Origin: an uncultured Syntrophomonadaceae bacterium
Lineage (GTDB): Bacteria; Bacillota; Dethiobacteria; DTU022
Assembly (NCBI GenBank): GCA_964464625.1
Contig: CAYXKD010000004.1
Span: forward strand, 6,966 to 70,965
Reading direction: 5' to 3'
Length of the DNA stretch: 64,000 bases
The position numbers and the translations under genes were made by a program. Below, piece by piece: positions 7,511 to 63,957 of this stretch; the stretch's first letter is position 1; every line of letters starts with the position of its first letter. The notes below the pieces were generated by a model. It saw nothing but the letters and a program-made list of their open reading frames with translations. It ran no database searches and had not been told where the DNA came from.

Positions 7511-7552
7511 AACTTAGTAAACTTGGTGCCTGGCACCGGTTTACTAACTTAC
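7511..7552. repeat. Palindromic repeat unit (ttagtaaacttggtgcc-t-ggcaccggtttactaa), copy A, just downstream of scpB
   Basis: Near-perfect inverted repeat seen directly in sequence. Member of a family with 7 loci in the window. Confidence 0.9.
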
Positions 7553-7564
7553 TAATTAAGTTGG

Positions 7565-8074
7565 CTAGATGTCGAGGGGTGGGAGTTCTTCCAGGCCTTT
7601 TAGGCCGAAGTACATTAAAAATTCGGGGGTTGTTTTGTAGATGAGGGGGCGGCCGGGCCCTTCTTTGCGGCCGCTGATGCGGATAAGTTTACGTTTTAAA
7701 AGGTTGTCGAGGATATGTTCGCAGCGGACGCCGCGCACCGCTTCGATCTCCATGCGCGTGAGCGGCTGCTTGTAGGCAATGATGGCCAGGGTCTCCAGGG
7801 CAGCCTGCGAAAGGTTCCCCGATTCTCCTTCGCCCAGCGCCTTCTCCAGGTAGGGCGCCAGCTCCGGTGCGGTGCCCATCTGGTAGCCTCCGGCAATGGC
7901 GAAGATGCGCAAGCCGCGCCCCTGTGAAGAGAGCTCCTGCTGCATCTGCTCCAGCAGCGCGCGCACCTCTTCGGTGCTGATTTCCAGGGCGGCAGCCAGC
8001 CTTTCCGCTTTCACCGGCTCTTCCTTCAAAAAAAGGAGCGCTTCAATTACAGCCTTGTACTGCTCATGCTCCAC
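7565..8074 (-). CDS. scpB: Segregation and condensation protein B
   Basis: ScpB winged-helix homology. Overlaps scpA. Confidence 0.9.
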   Translation of the reverse strand: MEHEQYKAVIEALLFLKEEPVKAERLAAALEISTEEVRALLEQMQQELSSQGRGLRIFAIAGGYQMGTAPELAPYLEKALGEGESGNLSQAALETLAIIAYKQPLTRMEIEAVRGVRCEHILDNLLKRKLIRISGRKEGPGRPLIYKTTPEFLMYFGLKGLEELPPLDI

Positions 8075-8873
8075 GGCTCTCCTCCTTTTTCAGCCTCACC
8101 AGAATGGGAGCGAAAGGTTTCTCCTGCAGCAAGACCACTTTGCGGAGCCGGGCCAGCTCCAGCAGGGAGATGAAAGTCACAAGCAGTTCCCAGAGCCCCT
8201 TCTCCCTGAGAAAGGAACGTAAGGGGAGCGTGCGGCCGCTGTGCTCCAGCAGAGCACAGATATAGGCGCTCTGATCGCTCACCGGCAGATCGTCAAGCAA
8301 TTCGATAACCGGCGCGATGGAGCGGGCTGCGGCGGCGGTTTCGAAGCGGTTCATGATTTCGCCCAGCAGATAGGCCCCCTCCCAATAGGTGTAATAGGAC
8401 TGCTGCTGCTCCTGATGATGTTGCTGCTGCTTATCCGAAAATATCAAAACCTTCTCGCCTGCCGTGGAGCGGAGAAATATTTTTTGCTGCTCTTCGGCAA
8501 GCCCGGCGAGGCGGCTGCCCGCCTCCTTAAAGAGGCGGTATTCCTCCAGCCTCAGGAAGAGTTCCTCAGGGCTGTTTATCCGGAAGAGCTCCTCGTCATC
8601 ATCATCCTCCTCTTCCCCGGCGGCCAGGGGCGGCCGGGGCAGGAGCATCTTCGATTTCAACCGCAGCAGCGTCGCCGCCATGACCAGAAATTCGCTGGCA
8701 ATATCGAGATTGAGCTCCCGCATGGAATTCAGGTAAGCGAGATACTGCTCCGTGATGGAGGCTATGGAAACAGACCAGATATCAAGTTCCGCCTTCTTCA
8801 CCAGGTGAAAAAGGAGATCAAAGGGCCCTTCGAAAACGGGCAGTTTGATGGTGTAAGCGTCTTGCTGCGGCAT
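8064..8873 (-). CDS. scpA: Segregation and condensation protein A
   Basis: ScpA homology (FEGPFDLLFHLV...). Confidence 0.9.
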   Translation of the reverse strand: MPQQDAYTIKLPVFEGPFDLLFHLVKKAELDIWSVSIASITEQYLAYLNSMRELNLDIASEFLVMAATLLRLKSKMLLPRPPLAAGEEEDDDDEELFRINSPEELFLRLEEYRLFKEAGSRLAGLAEEQQKIFLRSTAGEKVLIFSDKQQQHHQEQQQSYYTYWEGAYLLGEIMNRFETAAAARSIAPVIELLDDLPVSDQSAYICALLEHSGRTLPLRSFLREKGLWELLVTFISLLELARLRKVVLLQEKPFAPILVRLKKEESRGA

Positions 8874-9874
8874 TATATGCCCATGGCACCGCGGACCGCC
8901 TCAAGGGTGGCGGCGGCGGCTTGCCGCGCTTTTTCTTCGCCGCTGAAAAGGATCTCCTCAAGATAGCGGGGGTTGCCCTCCAGTTCACGGCGTTTTTCAT
9001 GAATGGGACCCATGAATTCGATGAGCCTGCGCGCCAGCAGCTCCTTACACTGAACGCAGCCAATCTCCGCAGTGCGGCAGCCCGATTCGATCTGCGGTAT
9101 TTCCGCCGCATTGAAGATCTGCTGAAAACGGAAAACGGTGCAGACTTCGGGGCGCCCGGGATCGCGCCGCCGTTCCCGCTGCGGATCGGTAATCATGAGA
9201 CTCACTTTTTTCTTGATCACATCGGGGGGATCGGAGAGCGCAATGTAGTTGTCATAGCTTTTGCTCATCTTGCGGCTGTCAGTTCCCGGCAGCAGGGTGT
9301 GCTCCCCCAGCAGCGGCGCCGGCTCGGGGAGGACCTTCCCGTAAAGGTAGTTGAAGCGGCGGGCCACCTCGCGGGTGATCTCCAGATGGGGCAGCTGGTC
9401 CTCGCCAACGGGGACGGCGTCGGCCCGGTAGGCCAGGATATCGGCGGCCTGCAGCAGGGGATAGCCCAGAAAACCGTAGTTGTTAATTTCCTTGCCCTCA
9501 AGCTCGCGGAGCTGTTCTTTGAAGGTGGGGCAGCGCTCCAGCCAGGCAATGGGTGTGATCATGGCCAGCAGCAGAAAGAGCTCGGCATGCTCCTTTATCT
9601 CGGACTGGCGAAACAGAACAGACTTTTCAGGATCAAGGCCCACACTGAGCCAGTCGAGGAGCATTTCGCGGCTGTTCTCTTTTAGATCCTGCGATTCGGC
9701 GTAGCCCGTTGTGAGGGCGTGCCAGTCTGCAATGAAATAGTAGCAGCTATATTCATCCTGCAGCTCTATCCACTTTTTCAGGGCGCCCGTATAGTTGCCC
9801 AGATGAAGCCGGCCGCTGGGCCGCGCTCCGCTGACAATGATTCTTTTTCTTTCTTTTGGATCCGCTTTACTCAT
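8873..9874 (-). CDS. trpS: Tryptophan--tRNA ligase
   Basis: Class I aaRS with HIGH-like (RPSGRLHLGNY) and KMSKS motifs. Confidence 0.95.
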   Translation of the reverse strand: MSKADPKERKRIIVSGARPSGRLHLGNYTGALKKWIELQDEYSCYYFIADWHALTTGYAESQDLKENSREMLLDWLSVGLDPEKSVLFRQSEIKEHAELFLLLAMITPIAWLERCPTFKEQLRELEGKEINNYGFLGYPLLQAADILAYRADAVPVGEDQLPHLEITREVARRFNYLYGKVLPEPAPLLGEHTLLPGTDSRKMSKSYDNYIALSDPPDVIKKKVSLMITDPQRERRRDPGRPEVCTVFRFQQIFNAAEIPQIESGCRTAEIGCVQCKELLARRLIEFMGPIHEKRRELEGNPRYLEEILFSGEEKARQAAAATLEAVRGAMGI

Positions 9875-9885
9875 TTTTTCACTCC

Positions 9886-10521: not shown

Positions 10522-13203
10522 CTACTCCTCCTTTCTCTGCTGCAGGTAGGAATGCACAAAATCCAGCTCTTCATCATAGCTGCGCAGCTCTCCATCGAGA
10601 ACCGCCCGGCGCAGGGCGCTCAGGATCTCCCCGAAGAGAGGGCCCGGCTGCAGGCCCAGTTCTTTCAGGGCGCCCCCCCTGAGCCGCGGCCGCACATGCT
10701 GCAGGCTTTCAAGGTAAAGCCTGACATTGTCCTGCACCGCCCTGTTTTTCGCCAGGGCATGGAGCAGGAGCAGCGACTCGGGGGCCAGGGGATCAAGCCT
10801 GTTCACCAGGATGCTGGGGCGAAGGCTGGCGCCGCCCGAAGAGGAAAGCTCTTCAAGCAGCAGCGGGACATCGCGGCATCCCTGCAGAACCACTCCGGCA
10901 CGGCGGCGCGACAAGCCCAGCCGCCGCAGGATGGCCTGTTGATCCTGTTTTCTCAGGTCCAGGATCAGGCCGCCCAGGTAGACGAGCTCTTTTTCAGGGG
11001 GGCTGGGCCATTCCCGCATCTCCGCCCAGGCCAGCGTTTCGGCGATGCGGTTAAGGCGCTGCCAGGTTTTGTGATTTGGCGAAAGACGGGGATAGATGAA
11101 TTTCAGAATGTTCAGCTCCTGGAGCCGCATGAGCACTGCCGCCGGATCATGTTCTTCGTAGATAAGGCTTATCTCCTGGGCCAGGCGGCGCCGGCTGATC
11201 CTGTCGAGGACCCTGCTGCGCAATGCCTTCACAATAAGGGCCAGGGTGCCTTCATCAATGCGGAAGCCGAAGCGCTGCTCAAACCTGACGGCGCGGAGCA
11301 CCCGCAGGGGGTCATCGACAAAGCTGAGATTATAGAGGGTCCGGATTACACCGCGGCTCAGGTCCTCGCGCCCGTTGAAAAAATCGTAGAGCTGCCCAAA
11401 GGAACCCGGGAGTATGGAGCAGGCCAGGGTGTTGATGGTAAAATCGCGCCGGTATAGATCGTTTTTCAGGCTTTCCGTTCCCTCCACCTGCGGCAGCGCC
11501 GCCGGGGAGGCGTAAATCTCCTGCCGCGCCGTGGCAAAATCAAGGCGGAGTCCCTCTTCCAAATAAATTGAAGCGGTGCCAAATTGTTCGAAGACCTTGA
11601 GCTTGCCTCCCAAAAATCTGACCATTTCCCCGGCAAAAGAGATGGCATCGGGGATGACTGCAAAATCGAGGTCTTTGGCAAGGGAGGCTCCCAGGAGGAG
11701 GTCGCGTATTGCTCCGCCCACAAGGTAAACCGATGAGCCCGCCAGCGCCGCCCGCTGCCCCATTAAAAGAAGGCGGCTCAGCCAGAGCGATGGGAATCTG
11801 GCCCGGATCAGCGCTTCCACATTATCTAGGGCGGAGGGCTCCGGCCTACTCTCTGTTTTCACAAGGCTGCCCCTGGGAAGAGGGGATTGAGAGCGGCGGT
11901 CGAGCCGGTAAAGATAGCGCAAAATATCGACGGGGGTGACCATGCCCAGGGGTTCTCCCGCATCACCGGTAATGACAATCTGCCTGGTTTTATGCTCCAC
12001 AAAAGCGCGGCGCAGCGCAGTAACAGATTCCCGCGGGCTTGCCGTAACAGGGTGCCGTCTCATAAAATCTTGCACCGGAGCATGGCCAAATTCGCTGCGC
12101 AGAGCTTTCTGCAGATCTCTGCCGCTGATCATGCCGGCGACTTTTCCTTCCTCCACTACAGGAGAGGCATCATATCCCTCAGCCTCCAGATATTCCTGTG
12201 CCCGGGTTACGCTCCAGGCGGCTTCAACGGCTGCAACAGGCGTGGAGGCAATCTCCAGGGCGGAAGCTGGAGGGGGGAGGTATCTTTCAAGCAGATCAAG
12301 GAGCCGCTCCCTGAGAGCGGCAGCTTCTTCTGTTTTAATTTCCGTGGTGACTGCCCGGCGGTGCCCTTTTGCGCCCAGGGGAGCCAGCAGCAGAAGCAGA
12401 TCAAGGTCATCGGCCGTGGACCTTGCATCCAGGTAGACAGCGCCCCGGGGCAGGGTAACAATAGTCAGGGCCAGGTCCACCTCTTCTATCTGTTGGAAGC
12501 GGCGGATGAGCATCCCCATGCCCCCCCTTTGCTCCTCAGCGGGCACTGTGGTCAGCAGGATCCGGCGCTCGCAGAGCTCAAAGAGCTCGCTTGCTTCCAA
12601 AAGTTTCGTAAACAGGCTTTCCCGGTATGCTGCGGGGACTGCATGCATATATTCCTGGAACAGCGCCACGTTGATCCCCTGATCCCACAGATAAGCGGCG
12701 GCGGCGGCATCCCGCGGCGTTGTATTGGCGCCCGTCAGCGAAGCGGTGTCCCGGTAGATCCCCAGCAGCATGAACGTATTCTCCAGTTCGCTCATGAGGA
12801 TCCGGCGCTGGCGGATCTCTTCCAGCAGCAGCGTTGTGACCGCCCCCACAGGCTCCACCCGGATTTCGCTTCCCTCGAGATCATCGGGCGAGGGCGGGTG
12901 ATGATCGTAGATATGCACTTCGCGGGCTCTATTCACAATGGGCTCGAATATGCCCATTCTTTTTCGCTGACGGCAGTCAACAATAACGGCTATCTCCGCG
13001 GGGGGATACTCTTCCCCCCCGGTGAATGTTTTTAGCGGGAGCTGCGCGCCGTGGTTTTCTAAAAAAAGAGCTGCATCGGGCTGGATACCCTGGGGAATCA
13101 GGGCATAACTCCCGGGATATATTTTTGTTGCCGCAACCAGCGCCGCCAGAGCGTCAAAGTCCGCATCATTGTGAGTCAATATGATTGTCAAGCCGCCAAC
13201 CAC
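10522..13203 (-). CDS. Multidomain DHH/DHHA1 phosphoesterase, CBS pair and CCA-adding tRNA nucleotidyltransferase/poly(A) polymerase
   Basis: N-terminal DHH (ILTHNDADFDALAA), central CBS pair, C-terminal PolyA_pol head (GGAIRDLLLGASLAKDLDFAV). GTG start with RBS AGAGGG; the ORF track gives 13209. Confidence 0.85.
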   Translation of the reverse strand: MVGGLTIILTHNDADFDALAALVAATKIYPGSYALIPQGIQPDAALFLENHGAQLPLKTFTGGEEYPPAEIAVIVDCRQRKRMGIFEPIVNRAREVHIYDHHPPSPDDLEGSEIRVEPVGAVTTLLLEEIRQRRILMSELENTFMLLGIYRDTASLTGANTTPRDAAAAAYLWDQGINVALFQEYMHAVPAAYRESLFTKLLEASELFELCERRILLTTVPAEEQRGGMGMLIRRFQQIEEVDLALTIVTLPRGAVYLDARSTADDLDLLLLLAPLGAKGHRRAVTTEIKTEEAAALRERLLDLLERYLPPPASALEIASTPVAAVEAAWSVTRAQEYLEAEGYDASPVVEEGKVAGMISGRDLQKALRSEFGHAPVQDFMRRHPVTASPRESVTALRRAFVEHKTRQIVITGDAGEPLGMVTPVDILRYLYRLDRRSQSPLPRGSLVKTESRPEPSALDNVEALIRARFPSLWLSRLLLMGQRAALAGSSVYLVGGAIRDLLLGASLAKDLDFAVIPDAISFAGEMVRFLGGKLKVFEQFGTASIYLEEGLRLDFATARQEIYASPAALPQVEGTESLKNDLYRRDFTINTLACSILPGSFGQLYDFFNGREDLSRGVIRTLYNLSFVDDPLRVLRAVRFEQRFGFRIDEGTLALIVKALRSRVLDRISRRRLAQEISLIYEEHDPAAVLMRLQELNILKFIYPRLSPNHKTWQRLNRIAETLAWAEMREWPSPPEKELVYLGGLILDLRKQDQQAILRRLGLSRRRAGVVLQGCRDVPLLLEELSSSGGASLRPSILVNRLDPLAPESLLLLHALAKNRAVQDNVRLYLESLQHVRPRLRGGALKELGLQPGPLFGEILSALRRAVLDGELRSYDEELDFVHSYLQQRKEE

Positions 13204-20885: not shown

Positions 20886-20943
20886 CGCTCTTATCCCCTT
20901 TCATTTTTTACTATTTTCCCCAAAGCCTCATCAATAATACCCA

Positions 20944-21021
20944 AACTTAGTAAACCGGTGCCAGGCACCGGTTTACCTATACCAGTTAGTTAGTGAACTT
21001 GGTGCCTGGCACCGGTTTACC
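20944..21021. repeat. Two adjacent palindromic repeat units (copy B1 gtaaaccggtgccaggcaccggtttac; B2 gtgaacttggtgcctggcaccggtttac), between deoB stop and dacF start
   Basis: Seen directly in sequence. Confidence 0.9.
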
Positions 21022-22231
21022 AGAAGGGGGTGCCGTGGTTCAGGGGGGGGAGGTGCAGCCAGGCGGAGGCGGAGGCGCCGAGGTCGGCAAAGGAGGATCG
21101 GGTGCCCAGGTTGCAGCTCTGCTCAAGCGAGGGGCTCCAGGCAATGATGGGTACATGTTCGCGGGTGTGGTCCGTGCCCGGGAAGGTGGGGTCGCAGCCG
21201 TGGTCGGCGCTGATAAAAAGATAGTCCCCGCTGCGGAGCAGGGTGAGAATTTCTCCCAGGTGGGAGTCAAAACGCTCCAGGGAGCGGGCAAAACCGGAGC
21301 TGTCATTGCGGTGGCCGTACAGTGTGTCAAAGTCTCCGAAAGTGGCCCAGATAATGCCGCCGGGGCTCTCCCGGAGCAGCCCCTTCAGCGCGGCGGCGGT
21401 GGCTTCATTGTCTCCGCCGGGCCGGTGCAGGGTAATCCCCCGGTGGTTGAAGACATCGGCTACCTTGCCGATAACCGCCACAGGATAGCCTGCTGCGGCG
21501 GCAAGATCAAGAAGGGTTGTCCCCGGCGGGGAGAGGGAGAAATCTTTTCTCCGGATTGTCCGCTGAAAAGCGCCGGGTTCGCCTGTAAAGGGGCGTGCAA
21601 TAACCCTGCCCACGCCGTGCTCCCCCTGGAGGATGGCGCGCGCTTCGGCGCACCAGCGGTAGAGCTCTTCCGGAGGGATTATCTCTTCATGGGCTGCAAT
21701 CTGGAAGACGCTGTCCGCCGAGGTGTAAACTATGGGGCGGCCCGTCTGCAGGTGGTTCTCTCCCAGTTCCTTGATGATCTCCGTGCCTGAAGCGGGAATA
21801 TTGCCTAGAATAGGACGCCCGATAGCCTTTTCAAAGGCATCGATGACCTCCCGGGGAAAACCGCGCGGATAGAGGGGAAAGGGCTTTTCCAGAACAAGGC
21901 CGGCCAGTTCCCAGTGACCGCTGGTGGTGTCCTTCCCCGCAGCACGGGAGGCCATCCGTCCGTAGTAACCCGCATTAAGCAGCGGCGGGGCCCCCGGGGG
22001 GGCGGCAGTGCCCGCTGAGAGGGAAAGGATTTCCTCCAGGCCCAGGCGCTGCAGGTTGGGCAGCTCCAGGGGGCCTTCCTTGGAAATAACATGGAGCAGG
22101 GTGTTGGCGCCGGCATCCCCGTAAGAGGCGGCATCAGGGAGCTCACCCACGCCGCCGCCGTCGATGATAACAATAACCGCCCGCCGCCCTGTGATGACGG
22201 GGCTATCAGGCTCGCGGGTGTGTTTTGTCAT
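21017..22231 (-). CDS. deoB: Phosphopentomutase
   Basis: Alkaline-phosphatase-superfamily phosphopentomutase motifs (VIVIIDGGGVGELPDA...GDAGANTL). Internal Met start at 22231 with 26-bp overlap of xerD; ORF track extends to 22411. Confidence 0.85.
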   Translation of the reverse strand: MTKHTREPDSPVITGRRAVIVIIDGGGVGELPDAASYGDAGANTLLHVISKEGPLELPNLQRLGLEEILSLSAGTAAPPGAPPLLNAGYYGRMASRAAGKDTTSGHWELAGLVLEKPFPLYPRGFPREVIDAFEKAIGRPILGNIPASGTEIIKELGENHLQTGRPIVYTSADSVFQIAAHEEIIPPEELYRWCAEARAILQGEHGVGRVIARPFTGEPGAFQRTIRRKDFSLSPPGTTLLDLAAAAGYPVAVIGKVADVFNHRGITLHRPGGDNEATAAALKGLLRESPGGIIWATFGDFDTLYGHRNDSSGFARSLERFDSHLGEILTLLRSGDYLFISADHGCDPTFPGTDHTREHVPIIAWSPSLEQSCNLGTRSSFADLGASASAWLHLPPLNHGTPFW

Positions 22232-23093
22232 AGACCTCGCGGATTTTGCGGCGGGTAATCTGAGTATAGATTTGAGTGGTGGAGATATCCGAATGGCCCA
22301 GCAATTCCTGGACTGAAAGGAGATCGGCACCGTTTTCCAGCAGGTGGGTGGCAAAGGAATGGCGGATCGTATGCGGCGTGATATCGCCGCCAATTTTGGA
22401 TTGCCGGGCATATTTCTTCAGGATCTTCCAGAAGCCCTGCCTGGTTAAACGGCGTCCGTGATGGTTCAAAAATAGCGCCTTCTCATCGTTCATCTTAATC
22501 ATTTTCGGGCGGCAGTTGCGCAGGTATTCCCCCACATAATTCACTGCCACAGAGCCGATGGGTACAATCCGCTCTTTCATGGCCTTGCCCCGGCAGCGCA
22601 AATATCCCACCTCGGGACTGAAATCGACAACATTCAGGGAGACAAGCTCTGAAACGCGGATCCCCGAGGCATACAGCAGTTCGAGCATGGCTTTGTCACG
22701 CAAGCCTGCCTGGCTGTCGTCACGGGGCTGCCGCAGCAACCTGTCCACCTCTTTTGTGGTCAGAACACGGGGCAGTTTCTTCTCAATCCGCGGCGCTTTT
22801 ACCAGTTGCGCAGGGTTCTCTTCCATGAGATCTTCATGCACCAGAAAGTTGAAAAATGAACGAATGGAGGCCACATTGCGGGAAATAGTTGAAGGCGCCC
22901 TCCCATCCTCTTTCAGGCGGAGAAGATAGCGGGTGATGAGCGAGCGATCAACTTTTGACGGCGAGGATACCTTCTCTTTCTCCAGGAACTGAATAAATTT
23001 TTTCAAATCCCGCCTGTAAGAGTCGAGAGTATTCCGGGCCAGTCCTTTTTCTACAGAAAGATAATGGGAAAAATGCTCGAGCCACGAATGCAT
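22206..23093 (-). CDS. xerD: Site-specific tyrosine recombinase XerD
   Basis: XerD homology including HxxR...Y C-terminal catalytic motifs (HTIRHSFATHLLENGADL...LGHSDISTTQIYT). Confidence 0.9.
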   Translation of the reverse strand: MHSWLEHFSHYLSVEKGLARNTLDSYRRDLKKFIQFLEKEKVSSPSKVDRSLITRYLLRLKEDGRAPSTISRNVASIRSFFNFLVHEDLMEENPAQLVKAPRIEKKLPRVLTTKEVDRLLRQPRDDSQAGLRDKAMLELLYASGIRVSELVSLNVVDFSPEVGYLRCRGKAMKERIVPIGSVAVNYVGEYLRNCRPKMIKMNDEKALFLNHHGRRLTRQGFWKILKKYARQSKIGGDITPHTIRHSFATHLLENGADLLSVQELLGHSDISTTQIYTQITRRKIREVYDKTHPRA

Positions 23094-31641: not shown

Positions 31642-31709
31642 AGCTGCCGGCCATTGAAGAGGCGGCGGAGACAATAGCTTAAAAAGGTCCTTAAAAAATC
31701 ATAAAGTTA

Positions 31710-31738
31710 CCTGCGCCGGTGCCAGGCACCGGCGCAGG
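31710..31738. repeat. Palindromic repeat variant (cctgcgccggtgccaggcaccggcgcagg), copy C, between the convergent spo0A and sigma-54 activator genes
   Basis: 29-bp perfect palindrome sharing the ccggtgccaggcaccgg core with the other copies. Confidence 0.85.
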
Positions 31739-31748
31739 CAACTCGGGG

Positions 31749-40077: not shown

Positions 40078-40088
40078 CCACTGTCACC

Positions 40089-40685: not shown

Positions 40686-40776
40686 CGGCTCTGCCGTGAG
40701 CCCGCTGCGTTATTTCAGGTTAATCATCTTGCCGCCCGGATATACTCCGGCTGCCGGGCGCTCCCCGGATAAACTG

Positions 40777-41349
40777 TAAAAAAAACATAAGTGGTAGCAG
40801 GCCAGATAAACGTTGCGGCTTAGGTCCAGCAGGTTTTCCCGAACAATCGCCCTCCGTCACCGGCAAGGCAGTTCCCTTTTCAGATTATTCCCGCCATGTC
40901 ACCAATGGCAGAGCTGGATTGCCACTTAGCTCACACTGTAATCCCTGACTTGCCTCTCTTGCGAGAACAGTCTAGAAGATTTCCTCCCTGGCTCCTGACC
41001 TCTCCTAGCCTCTTTTGCAGTGTGGGTTTCAGGAAATTTCTCCTCCCCCCGCCCACACCACTCAAGGCAGGCTACACTGCACCCAGCTTTCACCGCATGC
41101 AGGTTCATTCCCAAGCAGTAACCGTAGCCGTCAGGCATCCGGCCACCATCATTGGGTCTCCGCGAAGGCAGGGTCAACGCCTACATGCCTTTGTAGATCG
41201 CCCCGTCCTTCTTAACTCCCAGCACCGACCCCCAACTGGGCGTCGGCAGCCGGCACCAGGAACTTCATCGATGTGCCCTCAACGGATTTTTAGGCCCGTT
41301 TTCGAAGAGGGGGAGCCAACTAGAATACTGCACCACTTATGCCTCTTGT
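40777..41349 (-). ncRNA. ole: Candidate OLE (ornate large extremophilic) RNA, about 575 nt
   Basis: About 760-bp region with no credible ORF. Strong promoter TTGAGA-17-TGcTATAAT (complement 41356-41384). The 5' end (gcataagtggtg) pairs with the 3' end (ctaccacttatg), which is followed by a run of eight U. Sits between ispA/folD and oapA-dxs. Confidence 0.6.
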
Positions 41350-41355
41350 TGAAAA

Positions 41356-41384
41356 ATTATAGCACAACCCTTTTCCTTTCTCAA
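41356..41384 (-). promoter_or_regulatory. Sigma-A-type promoter (TTGAGA, 17-nt spacer, extended -10 TGCTATAAT) driving the OLE-like RNA
   Basis: Minus strand reads cTTGAGAaaggaaaagggttgTGCTATAATt. Confidence 0.65.
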
Positions 41385-41444
41385 GACGGCTGGAGCACCG
41401 CTGTACTCCCTGTTCCCATCCTGAAAGCCCTGGAAGCGGAGAAA

Positions 41445-42821: not shown

Positions 42822-42863
42822 TTTCCTCCTCCTTGGATAATGTTCCAGGTTGAATATACTCAA

Positions 42864-42990
42864 TTATACTTCAACACCTTTAACCGGGCAACCGCCACCA
42901 AACTTGGTAAACCGGTGCCAGGCACCGGTTTACTAAAATAGCTAAGTGAACTGGTGCCTGGCACCGGTTCACCTGGGCTCAGGCTCAAGA
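42864..42990. repeat. Left copy of an approximately 130-bp direct repeat (ttatacttcaacacYtttaacMgggcaaccgcc plus two palindromic units plus ggctcaag) flanking the AT-rich exporter gene
   Basis: Aligns with 44136-44275. Contains palindrome units D1 (42907-42933) and D2 (42946-42972). Confidence 0.85.
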
Positions 42991-44034
42991 AGCCAGATCA
43001 AATTCAATGATTAGCTGTTCCAGTTTCTCATTTATGCGTAGCGCTTCAGAATATACATTGTAGAATTCAAAAATACATTCACGATTATCTGCCTTGATGA
43101 GTTCCATGATCTTTTCTCGCATCTTTTCTCTATCGATACATCCCTTAACTTTTTGATACTCCTCGTTTAGAGCGATGTTGTTGTAGATATGCTTATGTAC
43201 AGTTAACAGGTATCTTAGATATCCATGTAAATCCTGACGTATCTCATGATATTGGGGACCTTCAGGCATAAAAATGATACTTCTGTGTAAAGCTGTCAGC
43301 CGTTCAAGGTTTGATTGAATGGCATTAATGGAGCGCCGGTATTTTTTTAAAAACAGCTTCTTTTTGGACCGGTTGTCCCTGGTCAGGAAGACATCGTCCA
43401 TCAAAAGGGAAAATATATCTCGGACATCATCCAATTCATCCCTGATCATTTGTCTTTTGTTTTTAATGATATCTTTTTCTACGTTTTTATCCCTCAAAAT
43501 ATCACTGATCACGCTGCTGTACAGGCACTCAAACTTTATGCGCAGTTCATTGATTTTGCTCTTCAGGTCTTCTGTATAATCAGGGGGCAAAAATACAATA
43601 TTTAGACCCGTGGAAACAGTCAGACCGATTAAAATTCCTGAAACGCGATAAACGATCTGCATAACATCAAAACTGCTAATGGTTCCAAGGGCTACCAGGG
43701 TTACCAGGGCAAACCTGATGCTCTCATTCAATTTTAGTTGTAAGCATATCAGGATAATGGCTATACTGCCCAGCCCAAGATAAAAAGCATTCAGTCCCAG
43801 AGTCAAGGCCAGTACAAATGCTATGATAGCGCCAATAAAGGTGGCGATTATTCTATTTCTGAAAGTCTGCAGGCTTCCCTTAATGGAGGGTTGCATCGAT
43901 ATTATCGCTGTTATAGCCGCTATCCCGGCAATATTGTAGCTTTCCGCACCAATCTTCGCTTCCAAAAGATTAACCAATAAAACTGTTAAAGTAACCACCA
44001 AACCTGTTTTAACTGTCCGGGCTCCAATTTTCAT
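42985..44034 (-). CDS. Aromatic acid exporter (ArAE/FUSC, YgaE/YqjA-like) family membrane protein, AT-rich, probably horizontally acquired
   Basis: MKIGARTVKTGLVV... N-terminus typical of Bacillus YgaE-like proteins. GC about 38-40% against about 63% surroundings. Confidence 0.75.
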   Translation of the reverse strand: MKIGARTVKTGLVVTLTVLLVNLLEAKIGAESYNIAGIAAITAIISMQPSIKGSLQTFRNRIIATFIGAIIAFVLALTLGLNAFYLGLGSIAIILICLQLKLNESIRFALVTLVALGTISSFDVMQIVYRVSGILIGLTVSTGLNIVFLPPDYTEDLKSKINELRIKFECLYSSVISDILRDKNVEKDIIKNKRQMIRDELDDVRDIFSLLMDDVFLTRDNRSKKKLFLKKYRRSINAIQSNLERLTALHRSIIFMPEGPQYHEIRQDLHGYLRYLLTVHKHIYNNIALNEEYQKVKGCIDREKMREKIMELIKADNRECIFEFYNVYSEALRINEKLEQLIIEFDLAS

Positions 44035-44135
44035 TAAAGATCAATCACCGTTCCTTCTTATATTTACGTCAAGCTATTTTTACATATTATCATACATGCC
44101 ACGATCATGACATTAGCTTACGCGGCCATTCTCCC

Positions 44136-44275
44136 TTATACTTCAACACTTTTAACAGGGCAACCGCCGTAAAACTTAGTAAACTGGTGCCTGGCACCGG
44201 TTTACTAAAACAGCTACGCCCCCCGGCTCAAGTTAAACTTAGTGAACTGGTGCCTGGCACCGAGTTCACTAAGTT
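44136..44275. repeat. Right copy of the approximately 130-bp direct repeat, containing palindromic units E1 (44178-44204) and E2 (44243-44269)
   Basis: Seen directly in sequence. Confidence 0.85.
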
Positions 44276-44302
44276 CAGTAATAGCTGCAGGGGGGTGACG
44301 TA

Positions 44303-44340
44303 AATAAAAAGCACAGCGCCCGGTATCAATCGCCGGGCGC
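44303..44340 (-). terminator. Rho-independent terminator downstream of folD
   Basis: Minus strand reads gcgcccggc-gattgata-ccgggcgc followed by tgtgctttttattta. Confidence 0.7.
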
Positions 44341-44348
44341 CCGTAAAA

Positions 44349-44392
44349 ATTAGTAAACTTGGTGCCTGGCACCGAGTTTACCGGGTTTACTA
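44349..44392. repeat. Palindromic repeat copy F (agtaaacttggtgcctggcaccgagtttac plus an extra gtttac), overlapping the folD stop codon
   Basis: Seen directly in sequence. Confidence 0.85.
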
Positions 44393-45247
44393 ATTTTGTT
44401 GCATTTCGCAGGCCATGACGGTGTGCTTGCAGAGTACGATGGTGGTAACGGAGCCCACTCCGCCGGGAACGGGGGTGATTTTTTCGACCAGCGGCTCCAC
44501 CGCGGCAAAGTCCACATCGCCGCAGTATTTGCCGGGATTGTCGGGATCGGCGTTGATGCCCACATCAACGACGATCTGCCCCGCTTTGACGTAGCTGCTG
44601 CCGATCATCTTGGCCCGCCCGATGGCGGCTACAAGGATATCGGCCTCGGCGCAGACCTTGTCCAGGTTCTCAGTGCGCGAATGGCAGATGGTGATGGTGG
44701 CATGCTCACGCATGAGCAGCATGGCCACAGGTTTGCCCACAACAAGGGAGCGGCCCACCACGGTGACCTTTTTCCCCTTCAGCGGGATATCGTAGAATTT
44801 CAGCATCTCCATGCAGGCGGTGGGGGTGCAGGGGGGGAAGCCTGTCACATCATCGGCAAAAACCTTCCCCGCGCTGCCCAGGGTCATGCAGTCCACATCC
44901 TTCTCCACAGGAATGAGCTGGCGGATCTTCTTCTCGTCCAGATGCTTCGGCAGCGGGGCAAACATGAGGATGCCGTGGATGGAGCTGTCGGCGCCCACAT
45001 CAGTAACCGCTTTTTCCAGCTGCTCCTGGCCAATATCCTCGGGGTGCTCAAAGATCTCAAAAGCAAGCCCGACCCCTTCACTGGTCTTCTTGATGCCGCC
45101 CTCGTAGAAAAGATCATCGGGGTTGGCACCCACACGGATAATCCCGATCTTGGGAGTAACCCCTTTTGCTTTCAGGGCCTCCACCCTTTTTACAAGATCT
45201 TCCTTCATGGCATCGACTACCGGTTTTCCTCTCAATCTTTCAGCCAT
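44390..45247 (-). CDS. folD: Bifunctional methylenetetrahydrofolate dehydrogenase/cyclohydrolase
   Basis: Full-length FolD homology. Confidence 0.95.
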
Positions 45248-45274
45248 TATCCCAACCTCCCATTTGTATAATAT

Positions 45275-45940
45275 TTATTTTTTGATCTTGCCGACAACGA
45301 GTTCCATTGTTTTATCGGCAACTTTGCTTCCGTCATTGAGCAGGTGATCCATCTCCTTGTTTACCCCGTCCACGAATTCCACATCCTTGATTGCGCCCAG
45401 GTTGATGATCACATTAAGGTAGGCGCTCTGCAGGGCCGCCTTCAGAAAGACCACACCGCAGCCCACATCGGAGATGGCCAGCATGGAGCCGATCTCGCCC
45501 ATGCGCTCATGGATTTTGATTCCCCGGTAAGCCTGGCGCATAATCTCCAGCGGGACTGCCAGGGCCACCTTGGAGCATTCCTCCAGGGTCTTTTCTTTGT
45601 GGGCCGCCTCTTCAGGGGTATTCTTCGGCAATCCATAGGCCGCGGCCAGCGGCTTGAAACCTTCGGCATCCTCATCCACCAGCGCCTTCAGGCGGTCGAT
45701 GATCCCGTAGCCCTCCTCGAGAAGAGCCTTAACTTCATCCTCCACGTCGGCATATCTTTTCTTGCCCACCGTGAGGTTGGCCACCATGTTGGAGAGAGCC
45801 ATCCCGATGGCTCCGCCCATGGCGGCCGCTCCCCCCCCTCCCGGAGTGGGAGCCTTTGATGCAAGCACATCCAAAAAATGATCGCAGCTGTTTGATGACA
45901 TGGCCATAACTAACATCCTCCTTAATTTTTTATTTTCCAT
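45275..45940 (-). CDS. fchA: Formiminotetrahydrofolate cyclodeaminase / methenyl-THF cyclohydrolase (FtcD C-terminal domain family)
   Basis: Cyclodeaminase-family all-helical domain (...PTPGGGGAAAMGGAIGMALSNMV...). Confidence 0.75.
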   Translation of the reverse strand: MENKKLRRMLVMAMSSNSCDHFLDVLASKAPTPGGGGAAAMGGAIGMALSNMVANLTVGKKRYADVEDEVKALLEEGYGIIDRLKALVDEDAEGFKPLAAAYGLPKNTPEEAAHKEKTLEECSKVALAVPLEIMRQAYRGIKIHERMGEIGSMLAISDVGCGVVFLKAALQSAYLNVIINLGAIKDVEFVDGVNKEMDHLLNDGSKVADKTMELVVGKIKK

Positions 45941-46027
45941 ACTTCGCGCTGTAAATTATATCCTGGTGTAAACTTTATTTTACCTTACCCCGCACAGTGT
46001 GAATAAGTGTGCTCCTTTTTGCCGGCG

Positions 46028-46951
46028 CTATTTGTATCTAAAGACGAGGCGGTGGGCCAGTTCACGCAGCAGATCCGCCCGCTGCTCCAGGGCATCCAGA
46101 GAGGCCAGCGCTTCGCGGTAAAGCTCTTCAGCACGCCGCCGCGCCGCTTCAGCGCCCAGCAGAGCCGGAAAGGTGGCCTTTTCACGGGCCCGGTCCGCAC
46201 CTGTCTCCTTGCCCATGAGGGCGGCGTCACCTTCCATATCGAGCAGGTCATCGGTGATCTGGAAAGCCCGCCCCAGGCAGGAGCTGTAACGGCCAAGAGC
46301 CTTCATCTGCACAGGCGAGGCTCCCGCAGCGATGGCACCGCAGCGCACCGCCGCCTGCAGCAGGGCGCCTGTCTTCAGGCTGTCTATCCGTTCAAGCTCT
46401 GCCGGCTCCATCTTTTTCCCCTCAGACTCAAGATCCAAAACCTGTCCCGCAACCATCCCCTCCGCCCCGGCGGCCCCGGCCAGCTCCAGCCCGATCTTCA
46501 GTGCAGGCTCAGAGCGGCCCTTCTCCAGACCGTACGAGGCAATAAGTTCAAAAGCAAGGGTCAACAGCGCATCTCCGGCCAAAATGGCCATAGCTTCACC
46601 GAAAACCCGGTGGCAGGTGGGCCTGCCTCTGCGCAGATCGCTGTCATCCATGGCCGGAAGGTCGTCATGGATGAGTGAATAAGTATGAATGAGTTCCAGG
46701 GCCAAAGCCACGGGCAGCACCTTCTCACCGGGAAAGCCCAGCGTCTCCGCTGCAGCCATGGCCAGCAGCGGGCGCAGCCTCTTGCCTCCTGCGGTGACGC
46801 TGTGAAACATTGCCTCCCGCAGGCGGGCAGGCTTTCCCGGCTGCTCTAAAAGTTCGACCAGGGCTTTCTCCACCGCTTTGCGCTGCCGCTCCAGGTAAGA
46901 CCCCGGATCAGAAATCTCCACCGGCACCGCCAGCGGTTTCGCCGGGTTCAC
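46028..46951 (-). CDS. ispA: Farnesyl diphosphate synthase (polyprenyl synthetase)
   Basis: FARM (LIHDDLPAMDDSDLRRG) and SARM (FQITDDLLD) motifs. GTG start overlapping the xseB end; ORF track over-extends to 47107. Confidence 0.85.
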   Translation of the reverse strand: MNPAKPLAVPVEISDPGSYLERQRKAVEKALVELLEQPGKPARLREAMFHSVTAGGKRLRPLLAMAAAETLGFPGEKVLPVALALELIHTYSLIHDDLPAMDDSDLRRGRPTCHRVFGEAMAILAGDALLTLAFELIASYGLEKGRSEPALKIGLELAGAAGAEGMVAGQVLDLESEGKKMEPAELERIDSLKTGALLQAAVRCGAIAAGASPVQMKALGRYSSCLGRAFQITDDLLDMEGDAALMGKETGADRAREKATFPALLGAEAARRRAEELYREALASLDALEQRADLLRELAHRLVFRYK

Positions 46952-47189
46952 CGGGCTCTCCGCCGCCCTCCCCCTCCGCCTCCTGCTCCTCCTTGAGAAG
47001 GTATTCCACCTGAAATTCGATTTCAGCCAGTTTTTCACGACAGTAGCGGGAAAGGCGCACTCCCTCCTTGAAACCTGCCAGCGCCTCCTCCAGGGGTATA
47101 TCCTCATTTTCCAGACGCGCCACGATCTCCTCGAGGCGCTTCATGGCCTCTTCATAAGAGAGATTTTCTTCTTTTTCTTCAGGGGACAA
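46908..47189 (-). CDS. xseB: Exodeoxyribonuclease VII small subunit
   Basis: XseB coiled-coil homology (LSYEEAMKRLEEIVARLE). Confidence 0.9.
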   Translation of the reverse strand: MSPEEKEENLSYEEAMKRLEEIVARLENEDIPLEEALAGFKEGVRLSRYCREKLAEIEFQVEYLLKEEQEAEGEGGGEPGEPGETAGGAGGDF

Positions 47190-48411
47190 GTTCAGGACCC
47201 TCCTCCAACTCTTCAGTGCGGCAGCGGGCGCTGCCGTTGCGGAAACGCAGCTGCAGGCGCTGTCCCACCTGCAACTCTTTTATGGATCGAATTACATTGC
47301 CCTTATCATCCTGGCAGTAGCTGTAGCCCCGGGCCATCAATTTCAAGGGACTGGACCCTTCAAGCTTATCCCCCAGCACCGCCAGTTGCAACCCTTTCAA
47401 CTCCAGGTAGCGCAGTATGGAGCGGCGCATCCTTTCATCAAGGGAGGCGCGGCGCTCCCCCGCTCTTTGCACCCTTTCCAGGGGGCGGCGGTAAAAACGG
47501 GCCGTCATCGTATAATCGAGCAGCTGCTTTTCCTGCAGCAGCCGCTGCTGCAGCGCCAGCGCACTTCTCTCCTCCAACCCCCTGATCTGCCTGAGCAGCT
47601 CATCGTAACGCGGCAGCGCAGCCGCCGCAGCGGCTGTAGGGGTGGCAGCCCGCAAATCGGAGACAAAGTCGGCAATGGTAAAGTCAGTTTCATGGCCCAC
47701 GGCGGAGATAACGGGCAGGCGGGAGCTGAAAATCGCCCGGGCCACCTTCTCGGTATTGAAAGGAAGCAGATCCTCCAGGGAACCGCCGCCGCGGGCGATA
47801 ATGATGAGCTCCACGCCCGCCATGCTGTTCAGCCGCTCAATGGCGCGGGCAATATCATCGGGGGCGCCGCTACCCTGCATCAGGCTTTCCGCAACGATGA
47901 TCCGGACATAGGGAAAACGCTGCCTCACCGTTGTGAGGATATCCTGCAGCGCCGCCCCGGTGGGCGAGGTGATGAGTGCAATACAGCGCGGCAGTTTGGG
48001 CAGCGGCTGCTTGTGCCCGTCGCGAAAAAGCCCTTCCTCTTCAAGTTTCTTCTTAAGCTGTTCAAAAGCCAGGTAGAGTGAGCCCATTCCCGCCGGCTCC
48101 ATCTCTGTCACATATAACTGGTAGGCGCCGCCGGGCTCGTACACGGAGACGCTGCCGGATATGAGAAGTTCCATCCCATCAGCAGGCTGAAAGAGGCAGC
48201 GCTGATTTTCACGTCGGAAAAAGACGCAGCGCAGCGAGGCGGAGCTGTCCTTGACGGTAAAGTACATGTGCCCTGAGCGATGGTGAGTGAAATTGGAAAG
48301 CTCCCCCGCCACCCAGATGTCGCGGAGGCGGGGGTCGCCCTGGATCAGCCCTTTGATGATCCGGTTAATTTCCGATACCGTATATACGGGAGTGCCATTC
48401 TGCATTTTCAA
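47179..48411 (-). CDS. xseA: Exodeoxyribonuclease VII large subunit
   Basis: OB-fold N-terminus and catalytic domain homology. Confidence 0.9.
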   Translation of the reverse strand: MKMQNGTPVYTVSEINRIIKGLIQGDPRLRDIWVAGELSNFTHHRSGHMYFTVKDSSASLRCVFFRRENQRCLFQPADGMELLISGSVSVYEPGGAYQLYVTEMEPAGMGSLYLAFEQLKKKLEEEGLFRDGHKQPLPKLPRCIALITSPTGAALQDILTTVRQRFPYVRIIVAESLMQGSGAPDDIARAIERLNSMAGVELIIIARGGGSLEDLLPFNTEKVARAIFSSRLPVISAVGHETDFTIADFVSDLRAATPTAAAAAALPRYDELLRQIRGLEERSALALQQRLLQEKQLLDYTMTARFYRRPLERVQRAGERRASLDERMRRSILRYLELKGLQLAVLGDKLEGSSPLKLMARGYSYCQDDKGNVIRSIKELQVGQRLQLRFRNGSARCRTEELEEGPELVP

Positions 48412-62071: not shown

Positions 62072-62629
62072 CTAGACACGCTCAATATATGCACCGCTGC
62101 GGGTGTCAATCCGTAAAACATCACCAATGCCGACAAAAAGCGGCACCTGAACGGTAAGCCCCGTCTCCAGTGTGGCCGGTTTGCTCCCCCCGGCGGCGGT
62201 GTCACCCTTGATCCCCGGTTCAGTTTGAGTTACCTCAAGCTCCACAGTAAAGGGCAGTTCCACGCCAATTATCTTCTCACCGTGCACCACTAAAGTCAAG
62301 CTGTCGTTTTCTTTCAGGTATTTCACCGCCTCCTTCATCTGTGCTGCTGAAAGGGCAAGCTGCTCGTAGCTGGCCAGATCCATAAGATAGAATTCTTCAC
62401 CGCTCCGGTAAAGATAGGACATCTCTTTTCGCTCCAGATGAGCGCGCTTGACCTTTTCACCGGCTCTGAAGGTCTTCTCTGTTACAGCGCTGCTGCGCAG
62501 ATTTTTGATCTTTGACCGGACAAAAGCAGCCCCCTTGCCCGGCTTGACATGTTGGAATTCAACCACCTCATAGATGTCGCCTTCCATTTCAAAGGTCAGG
62601 CCGGTATGAAAATCATTTGTTGAAATCAT
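62072..62629 (-). CDS. efp: Elongation factor P
   Basis: Full-length EF-P homology including the conserved KPGKG loop. Confidence 0.95.
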
Positions 62630-62654
62630 CTTGTATCATTACCTCCATCAGTGC

Positions 62655-63722
62655 TTAGATTACAATAAGCTCCCGCGGGCATTGCGTCAGCGTCTCAGAG
62701 CCGCCGGGTGTGATGAGAACCATATCTTCTATGCGGACACCGCCCCAGCCGGGTATGTAGATTCCCGGTTCAATGGTCACCACCATACCGGGCTGCAGAG
62801 TGCCTTCGCCCCGGGGCGACAAACGCGGCTGTTCATGGACCTCCAGCCCCAGTCCATGGCCCAGCCCGTGCCCGAAGTAGCTGTCAAAGCCCGCCTCCCT
62901 GATGGGGTCGCGGGCCAGAGCGTCGGCCTCCACGGAGGTCATCCCGGGCCTGATCTTTTCCCGGGCGAGCTGCTGGGCCAGGCGCACCGTCTCGTAGATT
63001 TCACGCGCCCGGAAGCCGGGCTCACCCAGGGCAATGGTCCTGGTCATATCTGTGGCATAGCTGTCAAATGTGCCGGTAAAATCGACGGTGATAAGTTCAC
63101 CCGGCTCGATAATCTTATCCGAGGCGACGCCGTGCGGCAGAGAACCCCGTACGCCCGAAGCGACAATATAGCGAAAAAGGGTTTCTGTGGAGCCCAGGCG
63201 GCGCAGGAAAAACTCAAGTTCCAGGGCCACCTCCTGCTCCGTTATGCCCGGTTTGACCAGATGGAGCAGAAAATCAAAGGCCTGGTCCATTATTGCGGCG
63301 CCGCGACGCAGCTTCTCCACCTCTGATTCGCTTTTTACAGCGCGCAGCTCCTCTACAATCCCCTTTGTGGGAAGAAGATGCAGCGGCAGCCCCTCCTGGA
63401 GCTCCCTGTAAAGGGAACAGGTTACCTGCTCCTCTTCAAAGGCAAGTTCACTCCAGCCCCCCTCTTTAATATGGGGGGCCAGGGCCTCACTGAGCCTTGC
63501 GTTCCAGGGGCAGATCCTAAAAAGGGGCGCCTCTTTTTCCGCCTGCTCAGAGTAGCGGAAATCGGTAAAGAGAAGCGCCTCCTCCGGACTGATGAGAAGG
63601 ACGCCCTGTGATCCGCTAAAACCGCTCAGGTAGAAGCGGTTGGCCTGTTGGGTAATCAGGAGGGCCTCCAGCGACCGTATGTTCAACTGTTCCTGCAAGC
63701 GCTGCAACCGCAATTGCATCAT
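62655..63722 (-). CDS. pepP: Xaa-Pro aminopeptidase (peptidase M24B)
   Basis: M24 creatinase/prolidase N-terminal plus catalytic domains with His/Asp/Glu metal ligands. Internal Met start with RBS AGGAGGAACA; ORF track extends to 63770. Confidence 0.85.
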   Translation of the reverse strand: MMQLRLQRLQEQLNIRSLEALLITQQANRFYLSGFSGSQGVLLISPEEALLFTDFRYSEQAEKEAPLFRICPWNARLSEALAPHIKEGGWSELAFEEEQVTCSLYRELQEGLPLHLLPTKGIVEELRAVKSESEVEKLRRGAAIMDQAFDFLLHLVKPGITEQEVALELEFFLRRLGSTETLFRYIVASGVRGSLPHGVASDKIIEPGELITVDFTGTFDSYATDMTRTIALGEPGFRAREIYETVRLAQQLAREKIRPGMTSVEADALARDPIREAGFDSYFGHGLGHGLGLEVHEQPRLSPRGEGTLQPGMVVTIEPGIYIPGWGGVRIEDMVLITPGGSETLTQCPRELIVI

Positions 63723-63922
63723 TGTTCCTCCTGTTCTTCGTGCATCCATTATCACCGGGTATATGCCCATCTCCGCCGGCCGCCCGCTCCGTCATATTTA
63801 CATTGATGCCGCGCCCGCTCCCTATCCCTGTCATCTTATCTACTTTTACCATTCCCTACTTTGGTTAATATTCCTTCCCTTCAAAGCAAAAAAAGCGCAA
63901 GACCACACCTTCCCGTCCCACT

Positions 63923-63957
63923 TTAGTAAACTTGGTGCCAGGCACCAAGTTTACTAA
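63923..63957. repeat. Palindromic repeat copy G (ttagtaaacttggtgccaggcaccaagtttactaa), perfect 35-bp palindrome with a compensatory cttgg/ccaag arm variant
   Basis: Seen directly in sequence. Confidence 0.9.

Follow-up and report, generated by a model that had tools for sequence, protein, structure and literature searches.

Palindromes dispersed in an uncultured Syntrophomonadaceae bacterium probably form a REP family with a Y1 transposase partner encoded between purM and purN

Short palindromes scattered between the genes of an uncultured Syntrophomonadaceae bacterium were analysed in a 64-kb stretch of its DNA (contig CAYXKD010000004.1 of assembly GCA_964464625.1), the whole of which is referred to below as the window. 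We consider it probable, at roughly 80%, that these palindromes form a genome-wide, non-autonomous family of repetitive extragenic palindromes (REPs), and that the enzyme acting on them is an HUH/Y1 transposase of the RAYT/TIRYT type, probably present as a single copy, whose gene lies beyond the window between purM and purN. A preliminary description, made from the letters of the window, had listed ten units at seven intergenic loci and likened them to REP/BIME elements, possibly targets of a RAYT. All seven loci read as it had described, including the tandem pairs and the A or T at the centre, and at least 58 distinct units were found on other contigs, together with a Y1 gene that such units flank.

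The family is recognised by its 13-mer core, GGTGCCWGGCACC, which occurred ten times in the window with 0 mismatches, compared with 0.10 expected (dinucleotide shuffles never reached 10). The longer core used in the preliminary description, CCGGTGCCWGGCACCGG, gave 8 matches at no more than 2 mismatches against 0.01 expected. The family consensus reads AAAGTTAGTAAACTT-GGTGCCWGGCACC-AAGTTTACTAACTTT and extends to a full palindrome of ~41 to 49 bp at most, (cc)AAAGTTAGTAAACTT-core-AAGTTTACTAACTTT(gg), the overall range being 27 to 49 bp. The units had been called perfect palindromes of 27 to 35 bp; palindromic they are, but only those with cores at 20957, 42914, and 63934 are perfect over the whole arm, and the family runs longer than that range. 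Unit 31718 has 19-nt arms that are 95% complementary, GC-rich, and different from the rest (cctgcgcc/ggcgcagg), and the remaining six units show a one-base length difference, or a G.T position, between arm and core. Folded as single-stranded DNA, nine of the ten units gave strong hairpins (-11 to -21.5 kcal/mol, z -5 to -9), that of unit 21001 being weak (-5.6 kcal/mol), while the inverted doublets at 20940-21026 and 42898-42978 each folded into one single REPIN-like hairpin (-28 and -29.8 kcal/mol). The left arm of an eleventh unit is cut by the window end; this unit is complete in a near-identical contig, L169. The units are, by position in the window:

7508..7552: REP unit 1, core 7525-7537, T-centred on the + strand; -11.2 kcal/mol, z -5.1; left arm duplicated (GTAAACTTAGTAAACTT); 13 nt downstream of where scpB stops (7565-7567)
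20947..20976: REP unit 2, core 20957-20969, A-centred; perfect 27-bp palindrome GTAAACCGGTGCCAGGCACCGGTTTAC, -13.7 kcal/mol; distal in an inverted doublet
20990..21020: REP unit 3, core 21001-21013, T-centred; z -8.6 for its doublet with unit 2 (20940-21026); right arm contains the stop codon (21017-21019) of the phosphopentomutase-like gene
31705..31743: REP unit 4, core 31718-31730, A-centred; -21.5 kcal/mol; in the gap where spo0A and the sigma-54 activator gene converge; inner arms CCTGCGCC/GGCGCAGG GC-rich and divergent, with no second occurrence among the loci fetched, outer AGTTA..CAACT family-like
42904..42936: REP unit 5, core 42914-42926, A-centred; near-perfect palindrome; distal in an inverted doublet
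42943..42972: REP unit 6, core 42953-42965, T-centred; GTGAAC/GTTCAC arms; z -8.2 for its doublet with unit 5 (42898-42978); 13 nt downstream of the stop codon (42985) of the ArAE exporter gene
44176..44208: REP unit 7, core 44186-44198, T-centred; -12.9 kcal/mol
44236..44275: REP unit 8, core 44249-44261, T-centred; GTGAAC/GTTCAC arms; -17.1 kcal/mol; direct with unit 7, 63 nt apart
44347..44396: REP unit 9, core 44361-44373, T-centred; right arm broken by a 9-nt duplication, GTTTACCGGGTTTAC; folD stop codon (44390-44392) within the arm
63923..63957: REP unit 10, core 63934-63946, A-centred; perfect 35-bp palindrome of the majority type (TT/AA linker); -15.9 kcal/mol
63995..64000: start of the left arm of unit 11 (AAGTAA...), whole in L169 with its core at 2621, A-centred

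Copies of the family were numerous on contigs of metagenome assembly MTBK01. Scanning metagenomes for the core joined to an arm yielded 116 stretches, ~45 MTBK01 contigs had units with both arms, and at least 58 distinct same-family units were left after duplicate removal, nearly all of them on MTBK01 contigs. This metagenome appears to hold the source strain; it contains a 98.7% identical copy of window positions 34355-47970, and the window FolD is identical as a protein on MTBK01164014 and on a contig of metagenome-assembled genome (MAG) GCA_012510425.1, the DNA being ~99% identical. Among adjacent unit pairs (n=9), three were A-T inverted and six direct. At locus L224 three units (999, 4029, and 7083) share the same unusual arms (GTGAAC/GTAAAC, with CC, AT, and GG linkers), two of them following tandem paralogous genes of ~930 aa that lie ~3 kb apart; here the duplication of a gene may have carried its unit with it.

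The 58 distinct units also allowed covariation of the arms to be assessed. Because a MAFFT alignment of them gapped only the left linker, we used anchored counts and permutation tests. The linker, 1 or 2 nt between GTRAAC and the core, was complementary to its partner in 33 of 58 units against 15.4 expected (p<5e-5), in seven different Watson-Crick combinations, and the minority-type linkers alone gave 13 complementary cases against 3.3 expected (p<5e-5). The A/G position of the arm hexamer (GTAAAC/GTGAAC) likewise covaried with its partner (Fisher p=5e-4). Compensatory variation of the arms, noted in the preliminary description from the window copies, thus extends to the larger set. Arm mismatches showed no G.U strand bias (C.A 8 vs T.G 7); what maintains pairing therefore acts on the DNA, or on both strands, and not on a single transcript. 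An apparent strand signal among the window copies, in which imperfect T-centred units carried G.T on the plus strand, was gone from the larger set.

A search for a RAYT/TnpA gene, which the preliminary description had proposed, led to contig MTBK01082652 (locus L161). There, a Y1 open reading frame (ORF) of ~296-301 aa lies on the minus strand between purM and purN, with two units on one side (1019 and 1078, A-centred) and two on the other (2022 and 2068, T-centred). The product matched Pfam Y1_Tnp (E=6.9e-14), and its last residues, LVNLVPGTGFT, are encoded by the REP itself. Its AlphaFold model (pLDDT 88) has a helical C-terminal domain and found its best PDB match in the E. coli RAYT-REP complex 4ER8 (target-normalised TM 0.72, E 1e-6), followed by ISDra2 and IS608 TnpA. 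The single sequence found nothing in a phmmer search of PDB, the family profile and the structure model being needed; with the profile, the N-terminal part matched 4ER8 (1.3e-5) and positions 203-283 matched DnaA domain IV (2Z4R, E=2.5e-6). Pfam called no C-terminal helix-turn-helix (HTH) domain on the L161 protein alone, and PF08299 is precomputed on many homologues. Both the HuH motif (NHxH) and Y---NP (here RYIHLNP), the class-2 signature (PMC6006769), were conserved in family alignments.

The position of this gene is conserved. A 74% identical orthologue (L022) lies next to purN with a core-bearing unit on one side, and a 50% identical one (L239) lies between purN and purM, flanked in inverted orientation by units with the same core and other arms (AGTTCAT..ATGAACT), 6-7 cores occurring in 17.7 kb. 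Synteny with purM/purN spans three genomes at 100, 74, and 50% identity, which suggests that the gene is passed on vertically. The window itself has no Y1 gene; nor does it contain any other transposase, which, as far as the window goes, speaks against the units being parts of a larger insertion sequence, an outcome the preliminary description had considered. The 90% cluster of the L161 protein includes NLA26183.1, the window ScpB is NLA26284.1, and the window FolD is NLA26350.1; these accessions fall in one series, placing transposase, ScpB, and FolD in one MAG.

A loose genome scan with GGTGCCWGGCACCRRNTT gave at least 119 core-containing 8-kb loci from many phyla, the source genome not being among those listed. 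In four of the 119 loci listed, a Y1 gene lay within ~150 bp of the core: L004 (Actinobacteria), L022, and L055 and L056 (Acidobacteriota). The L056-type family numbers 2275 proteins at E<1e-10, typically of ~323 aa, and at two further loci of this type that were fetched blind (L248 and L249), exact cores bound both as the outer part of long terminal inverted repeats (TIRs). Read in the sense of the gene, core polarity was the same in all eight transposase loci, from three phyla (L161, L022, L239, L004, L055, L056, L248, and L249): A-centred upstream and T-centred downstream. Because this polarity is constant, we take the central A/T to be a genuine mark of orientation, as the preliminary description had proposed from the flipping of that base.

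Homologues at 36-48% identity, at six distinct loci, are bounded by TIRs of another kind (GGGGTCAGGCTTG), reading GGG(G)TCAG(G/A)CTT... and ...AAG(C/T)CTGACCC(C). The core was absent within 10 kb at all six distinct loci of these GGGGTCAG-type relatives and present at 7/7 loci of the two core-flanked Y1 lineages. The TIRs of the homologues fit GGGGWSAS, the TIR motif carried by TIRYT enzymes (Di Nocera 2013, PMC3733652), and TIRYT corresponds to TnpA_Y1 subclass 2.1 and to Bertels' RAYT Group 1 (Quentin 2018, PMC6006769). In a neighbour-joining tree of the sequences gathered here, the REP-associated clade was monophyletic (100/100) and nested among the GGGGTCAG-type TIR enzymes. Loci L240-L247 are sister-enzyme loci; in L241 the downstream repeat is tandemly duplicated and a second Y1-like fragment follows the gene (10951-11292).

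The core half-site GGTGCCAGGC matches the sister TIR GGGGTCAGGC at 8/10 positions, with the same polarity to the gene. From these sequences we infer that half-site and sister TIRs correspond, and it is because of this resemblance and shared polarity that the clade can be viewed as an intermediate in the derivation of REPs from transposon ends. On this proposal, to which we would give slightly less than even odds, GGTGCCWGGCACC is a conserved recognition module of a pan-phylum lineage of long, HTH-bearing Y1 transposases resembling TIRYT/subclass 2.1, and the present clade is a natural TIR-to-REP intermediate. The core is the outer part of long TIRs in loci of the Acidobacteriota and Actinobacteria type; in the Syntrophomonadaceae-like Bacillota clade it would have turned into the tip of a free-standing palindrome, which may have spread as a true REP/REPIN family with the loop A/T as strand selector.

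Many of the core loci listed in the scan are multi-copy, AT-armed palindromes, such as gaaattGGTGCCWGGCACCaatttc. The same core with other AT-rich arms was multi-copy in MAGs of Allosphingosinicella, Bryobacterales, Gammaproteobacteria, Actinomycetes, and Atribacteria, which suggests independent expansions of core palindromes in distant phyla. These include Allosphingosinicella loci L003, L010, L024, L038, L041, L061, L073, L080, and L083, Bryobacterales loci L001, L007, and L078, gammaproteobacterial loci L006, L054, L070, and L109, and Atribacteria loci L015 and L075, with genome-specific arms (gaaatt..aatttc, ttaaatt..aatttaa, ataactt). No Y1 gene was present on the 8-kb loci from Allosphingosinicella, Bryobacterales, Gammaproteobacteria, and Atribacteria. 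Another arrangement occurred in contigs from soil and other metagenomes (L139, L162, L168, L193, L202, and L221), where two cores of opposite polarity lie 2 nt apart (GGTGCCTGGCACCnnGGTGCCAGGCACC), often preceded by GTAAACC or GTGAACN. In Pseudomonas (L005, L030, L058, L069, L072, L079, and others), the core appears once inside a conserved coding gene (..GAACTCGGTGCCWGGCACCAGGTTGTTCAGG..); these were rejected as family members and treated as chance matches, and because of them a bare core match is not diagnostic. A literature search for the core string returned only unrelated mammalian papers, and the string is absent from the text and supplements, figures aside, of Di Nocera 2013 (PMC3733652).

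In the window, ~87% of which is coding, all ten cores fell in non-coding gaps. Each unit lay 3' of a minus-strand gene or in the convergence of spo0A and the activator gene, as the preliminary description had stated for all ten, and its naming of the flanking genes agreed with Pfam:

7565-8074, - strand: ScpB
21017-22411, - strand: phosphopentomutase-like enzyme (deoB-like gene)
30850-31641, + strand: Spo0A
31840-33975, - strand: sigma-54 activator
42985-44034, - strand: ArAE exporter
44390-45247, - strand: FolD

Gene context was judged only from these Pfam-checked window genes and from a stop-distance statistic; the contexts from a heuristic gene caller were left unused because some were wrong, an antisense ORF having been called over folD, for example. 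A frame of at least 100 aa ended no more than 25 nt from the core in 33 of 57 units, 15 of these stopping at the TAG inside TTAGTAAAC, and about half of the units adjoin or supply a stop codon. The TAG and TAA in the arm TTAGTAA serve as stop codons of upstream genes (window 21017-21019 and 44390-44392; L161 1045-1100). The orientation of a unit relative to its upstream gene was not fixed (A 24 vs T 14). One reading frame through the unit is open and encodes LVNLVPGTKFT, a peptide that recurs at many spurious ORF ends.

A terminator scan of the units found none to be terminator-like; they have no T-tract, their tails reading CTAACTT, and for want of a T-tract after the hairpins we do not regard them as intrinsic terminators. 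A separate, canonical terminator-like hairpin was found on the folD transcript between unit 44361 and units 44249/44186, at 44340..44301 on the minus strand (GCGCCCGG-9-CCGGGCGC, then TGTGCTTTTTATTT); a simple scanner had passed over it because its T-run begins 5 nt past the stem. At gathering score, Rfam gave no match at the units.

Other features were seen near the units. The only Rfam match in the window was a full-length ornate large extremophilic (OLE) RNA at 40775-41352 on the minus strand (RF01071, 470 bits, model 1-616), between the DXP-synthase region and a pyridine-nucleotide-disulphide oxidoreductase gene. A 33-nt direct repeat, GGCGGTTGCCCnGTTAAAnGTGTTGAAGTATAA, occurs at 42863-42896 and 44136-44168 (minus-strand sense), in both cases directly after a REP unit and upstream of one of two adjacent genes, for the oxidoreductase and the ArAE exporter. 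It holds a promoter-like TTGCCC-17-TATAAT, and none of the loci fetched had a third copy; the two genes may share it as a promoter or operator, or it may be a local duplication carried with a REP. Just past the window end, L169 has a minus-strand gene (2704-3055) upstream of units 10 and 11, the product of which shows a sorting-signal-like tail LPATPG, a hydrophobic stretch, and RRKRHR; the stop codon of this gene is separated from the REP units by a hairpin, TTATAGGCTGG..CCGGCCTATAA.

Alternatively, the palindromes might be primarily RNA elements, terminators or 3'-end-protecting hairpins under selection on transcripts, with their similarity due to duplication or convergence. Every window unit lies 3' of a gene, more than half of the larger set lies close behind a long frame, the hairpins are very stable, and E. 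coli REPs are established to stabilise upstream mRNA (reviewed in PMC3733652). We nevertheless judge this unlikely, since the units lack a T-tract and none is terminator-like, the terminator at 44340..44301 follows unit 44361 as an element of its own, terminators do not share almost the same sequence across more than 58 unrelated loci, mismatches show no G.U preference on either strand, orientation to the upstream gene varies, and four units flank a transposase gene with fixed polarity. Selection on a terminating or mRNA-level hairpin, which the preliminary description had offered among the reasons for preserved pairing, is disfavoured by the missing T-tract, the separate terminator, and the balanced mismatches; any effect of the units on transcripts would be secondary.

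Sites for a dimeric host DNA-binding protein, be it a global regulator, a nucleoid or segregation protein, or sigma-54 acting through TGGCAC, are very unlikely to account for the family, even though dimer operators typically show such a perfect dyad around an invariant centre, here of 13 bp. For sigma-54, the T-centred strand CTGGCACCAAGTTTACT fits 12/14 specified positions of the textbook consensus YTGGCACGrNNNTTGCW, and a sigma-54 activator gene adjoins unit 31718; however, AC replaces the GC of the -12 element (TTAC), the spacing shifts with the 1- or 2-nt linker, the sites come after genes and not before them, and the same core flanks a Y1 gene in an Actinobacteria MAG (L004). Actinobacteria generally lack sigma-54. 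A sigma-54 promoter was rejected on these grounds, and no host protein of this kind would explain the tandem and inverted doublets, the flanking of the transposase gene, or arms that vary between related genomes around a constant core. Still more improbable, in our estimate, is that the units are miniature inverted-repeat transposable elements (MITEs), or isolated ends of an ordinary DDE insertion sequence whose inverted repeats are alike. They are indeed short, dispersed, palindromic, and intergenic, and in Acidobacteriota-type loci the core forms the outer part of long terminal inverted repeats, yet aligned units read by eye showed neither a target-site duplication nor any internal stretch separating the arms, which also tells against the MITE-like origin entertained in the preliminary description. 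Moreover, the conserved motif occupies the middle of the palindrome instead of its outer ends, none of the loci examined has a DDE transposase beside a unit, and the Y1/HUH enzyme is the only recurrent neighbour gene.

Several points also weigh against a REP family with a RAYT/TIRYT-type partner. We know of no biochemical evidence for any subclass 2.1 enzyme. The transposase gene lies outside the window, and its predicted link to the same genome comes from a binned MAG, the accession series, and shared repeats, not from a closed genome. The best NCBIfam match of the protein, REP_Tyr_transpos (NF047646), scored 53.8 bits, under the curated cutoff of 80. A GTAG (or CGTC) tetranucleotide at one end of the palindrome is a REP criterion (Di Nocera 2013, PMC3733652; Nunvar 2010, PMC2817692), and this tag is absent from the tag position of the consensus AAAGTTAGTAAACTT-core-AAGTTTACTAACTTT. 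Published surveys saw no REP-like sequences adjoining subclass 2.1 genes (PMC6006769), and pairing with REPs is thus unusual for such an enzyme. Signs of mobility were indirect. Three ~99% identical strains had the same unit positions, differences in the aligned element regions being confined to unit arms and adjacent spacer; among them there was no insertion or absence polymorphism of units, only arm substitutions. The sole copy-number difference seen was in the dacA/deoB spacer, where a 76% identical relative (L095) has one unit with other arms and the window has two.

If the palindromes are a REP family served by this transposase, each unit would fold into a hairpin wherever DNA becomes single-stranded, for example at the replication fork. 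The invariant core would form the hairpin tip, a 5-bp GGTGC/GCACC stem closed by a C-W-G loop, and the central A/T, as the only built-in asymmetry, would signal strand and orientation to the enzyme, which would read this loop base. The Y1 domain would bind the unit, cut at or near the hairpin foot, and rejoin the DNA, with the DnaA-domain-IV-like C-terminal HTH contributing DNA binding, so that the units could be mobilised on single-stranded DNA. Over time, single units, direct pairs, and inverted REPIN-like pairs would be seeded into tolerated sites, which in the great majority of cases overlap the stop codon of a gene or lie within a few bases behind it, where the TTAGTAA arm would bring its own stops.

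Several known systems invite comparison, among them the REP/BIME elements of E. coli with their RAYT (TnpA_REP), reportedly treated by Ton-Hoang and Messing in 2012. Like those elements (Nunvar 2010, PMC2817692), the present units are short, multi-copy extragenic palindromes found mostly after genes and between co-directional or convergent ones, in single, direct, and inverted arrangements; likewise, an HUH/Y1 gene is flanked by inverted units, and the modelled enzyme is closest to 4ER8. Unlike them, these units have no GTAG/CGTC tag next to the hairpin; their palindromes are nearly perfect, reach 41-49 bp, and carry the conserved portion at the tip of the hairpin. The enzyme, at ~296 aa with a DnaA-domain-IV-like HTH, is longer than the 165 aa in the 4ER8 chain and scores below the NCBIfam RAYT cutoff, and the host is an uncultured Syntrophomonadaceae-like Bacillota anaerobe, not a proteobacterium. 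As in the REPIN-RAYT systems of P. fluorescens (PMC3116915; PMC5581495), inverted REP pairs fold into one long hairpin, the transposase keeps a fixed locus (purM/purN, down to 74 and 50% identity), and the arms are lineage-specific. Here, however, 3/9 adjacent pairs are inverted, singlets dominate, and each REP is a full palindrome, while the enzyme groups with Group 1/subclass 2.1 relatives and not with Groups 2 and 3, which are reported to have abundant REPINs.

The TIRtrons and their TIRYT enzymes (PMC3733652; PMC6006769; Bertels 2017) share with the present enzyme a long Y1 protein with a C-terminal HTH related to Bac_DnaA_C; its nearest homologues outside the clade bear GGGGTCAGGCTTG... 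TIRs, which the core half GGTGCCAGGC resembles through GGGGTCAGGC. Some TIR families are self-complementary, moderately abundant, and present in dimers (Di Nocera 2013, PMC3733652). Unlike in TIRYT systems, the flanks here are complete palindromes rather than one-sided TIRs, the units are densely dispersed (11 in 64 kb) with no transposase nearby, and the flank GGTGCCAG fits GGGGWSAS at 6/8 positions only. The IS200/IS605 elements IS608 and ISDra2 have the same HUH/Y1 fold and recognise DNA hairpins on single-stranded DNA. They differ in being multi-copy and in carrying the transposase between two different subterminal hairpins that are recognised on the same strand, whereas here the gene is syntenic and apparently single, one palindrome in inverted copies makes up both of its flanks, and the dispersed units are gene-free. 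With intrinsic terminators the units share a G+C-containing hairpin just after the stop codon; unlike terminators they have no T-tract, and one sequence is common to dozens of genes in both orientations.

To our knowledge, work on REP-RAYT systems has dealt almost exclusively with Proteobacteria. Less expected here are a true and dense REP family paired, in a Gram-positive anaerobe, with a subclass-2.1-like enzyme, a 13-bp core common to several phyla, and a single-base mark of orientation; the largest RAYT-like class (subclass 2.1/Group 1/TIRYT) was reported without REP partners (PMC6006769). The principle is already known, because self-complementary, dimeric TIR families have been described (PMC3733652), and what is added is a poorly described version of the REP-RAYT/TIR-TIRYT kind from an uncultured Gram-positive anaerobe. 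In annotation, recurrent TAG/TAA stops and short 'LVNLVPGTKFT' ORF tails in these MAGs are accounted for by the units, which are also likely breakpoints of metagenome assemblies. With sister lineages that carry one-sided terminal repeats, two questions become approachable: how REPs arise out of transposon ends, and what a RAYT-type enzyme reads in its hairpin.

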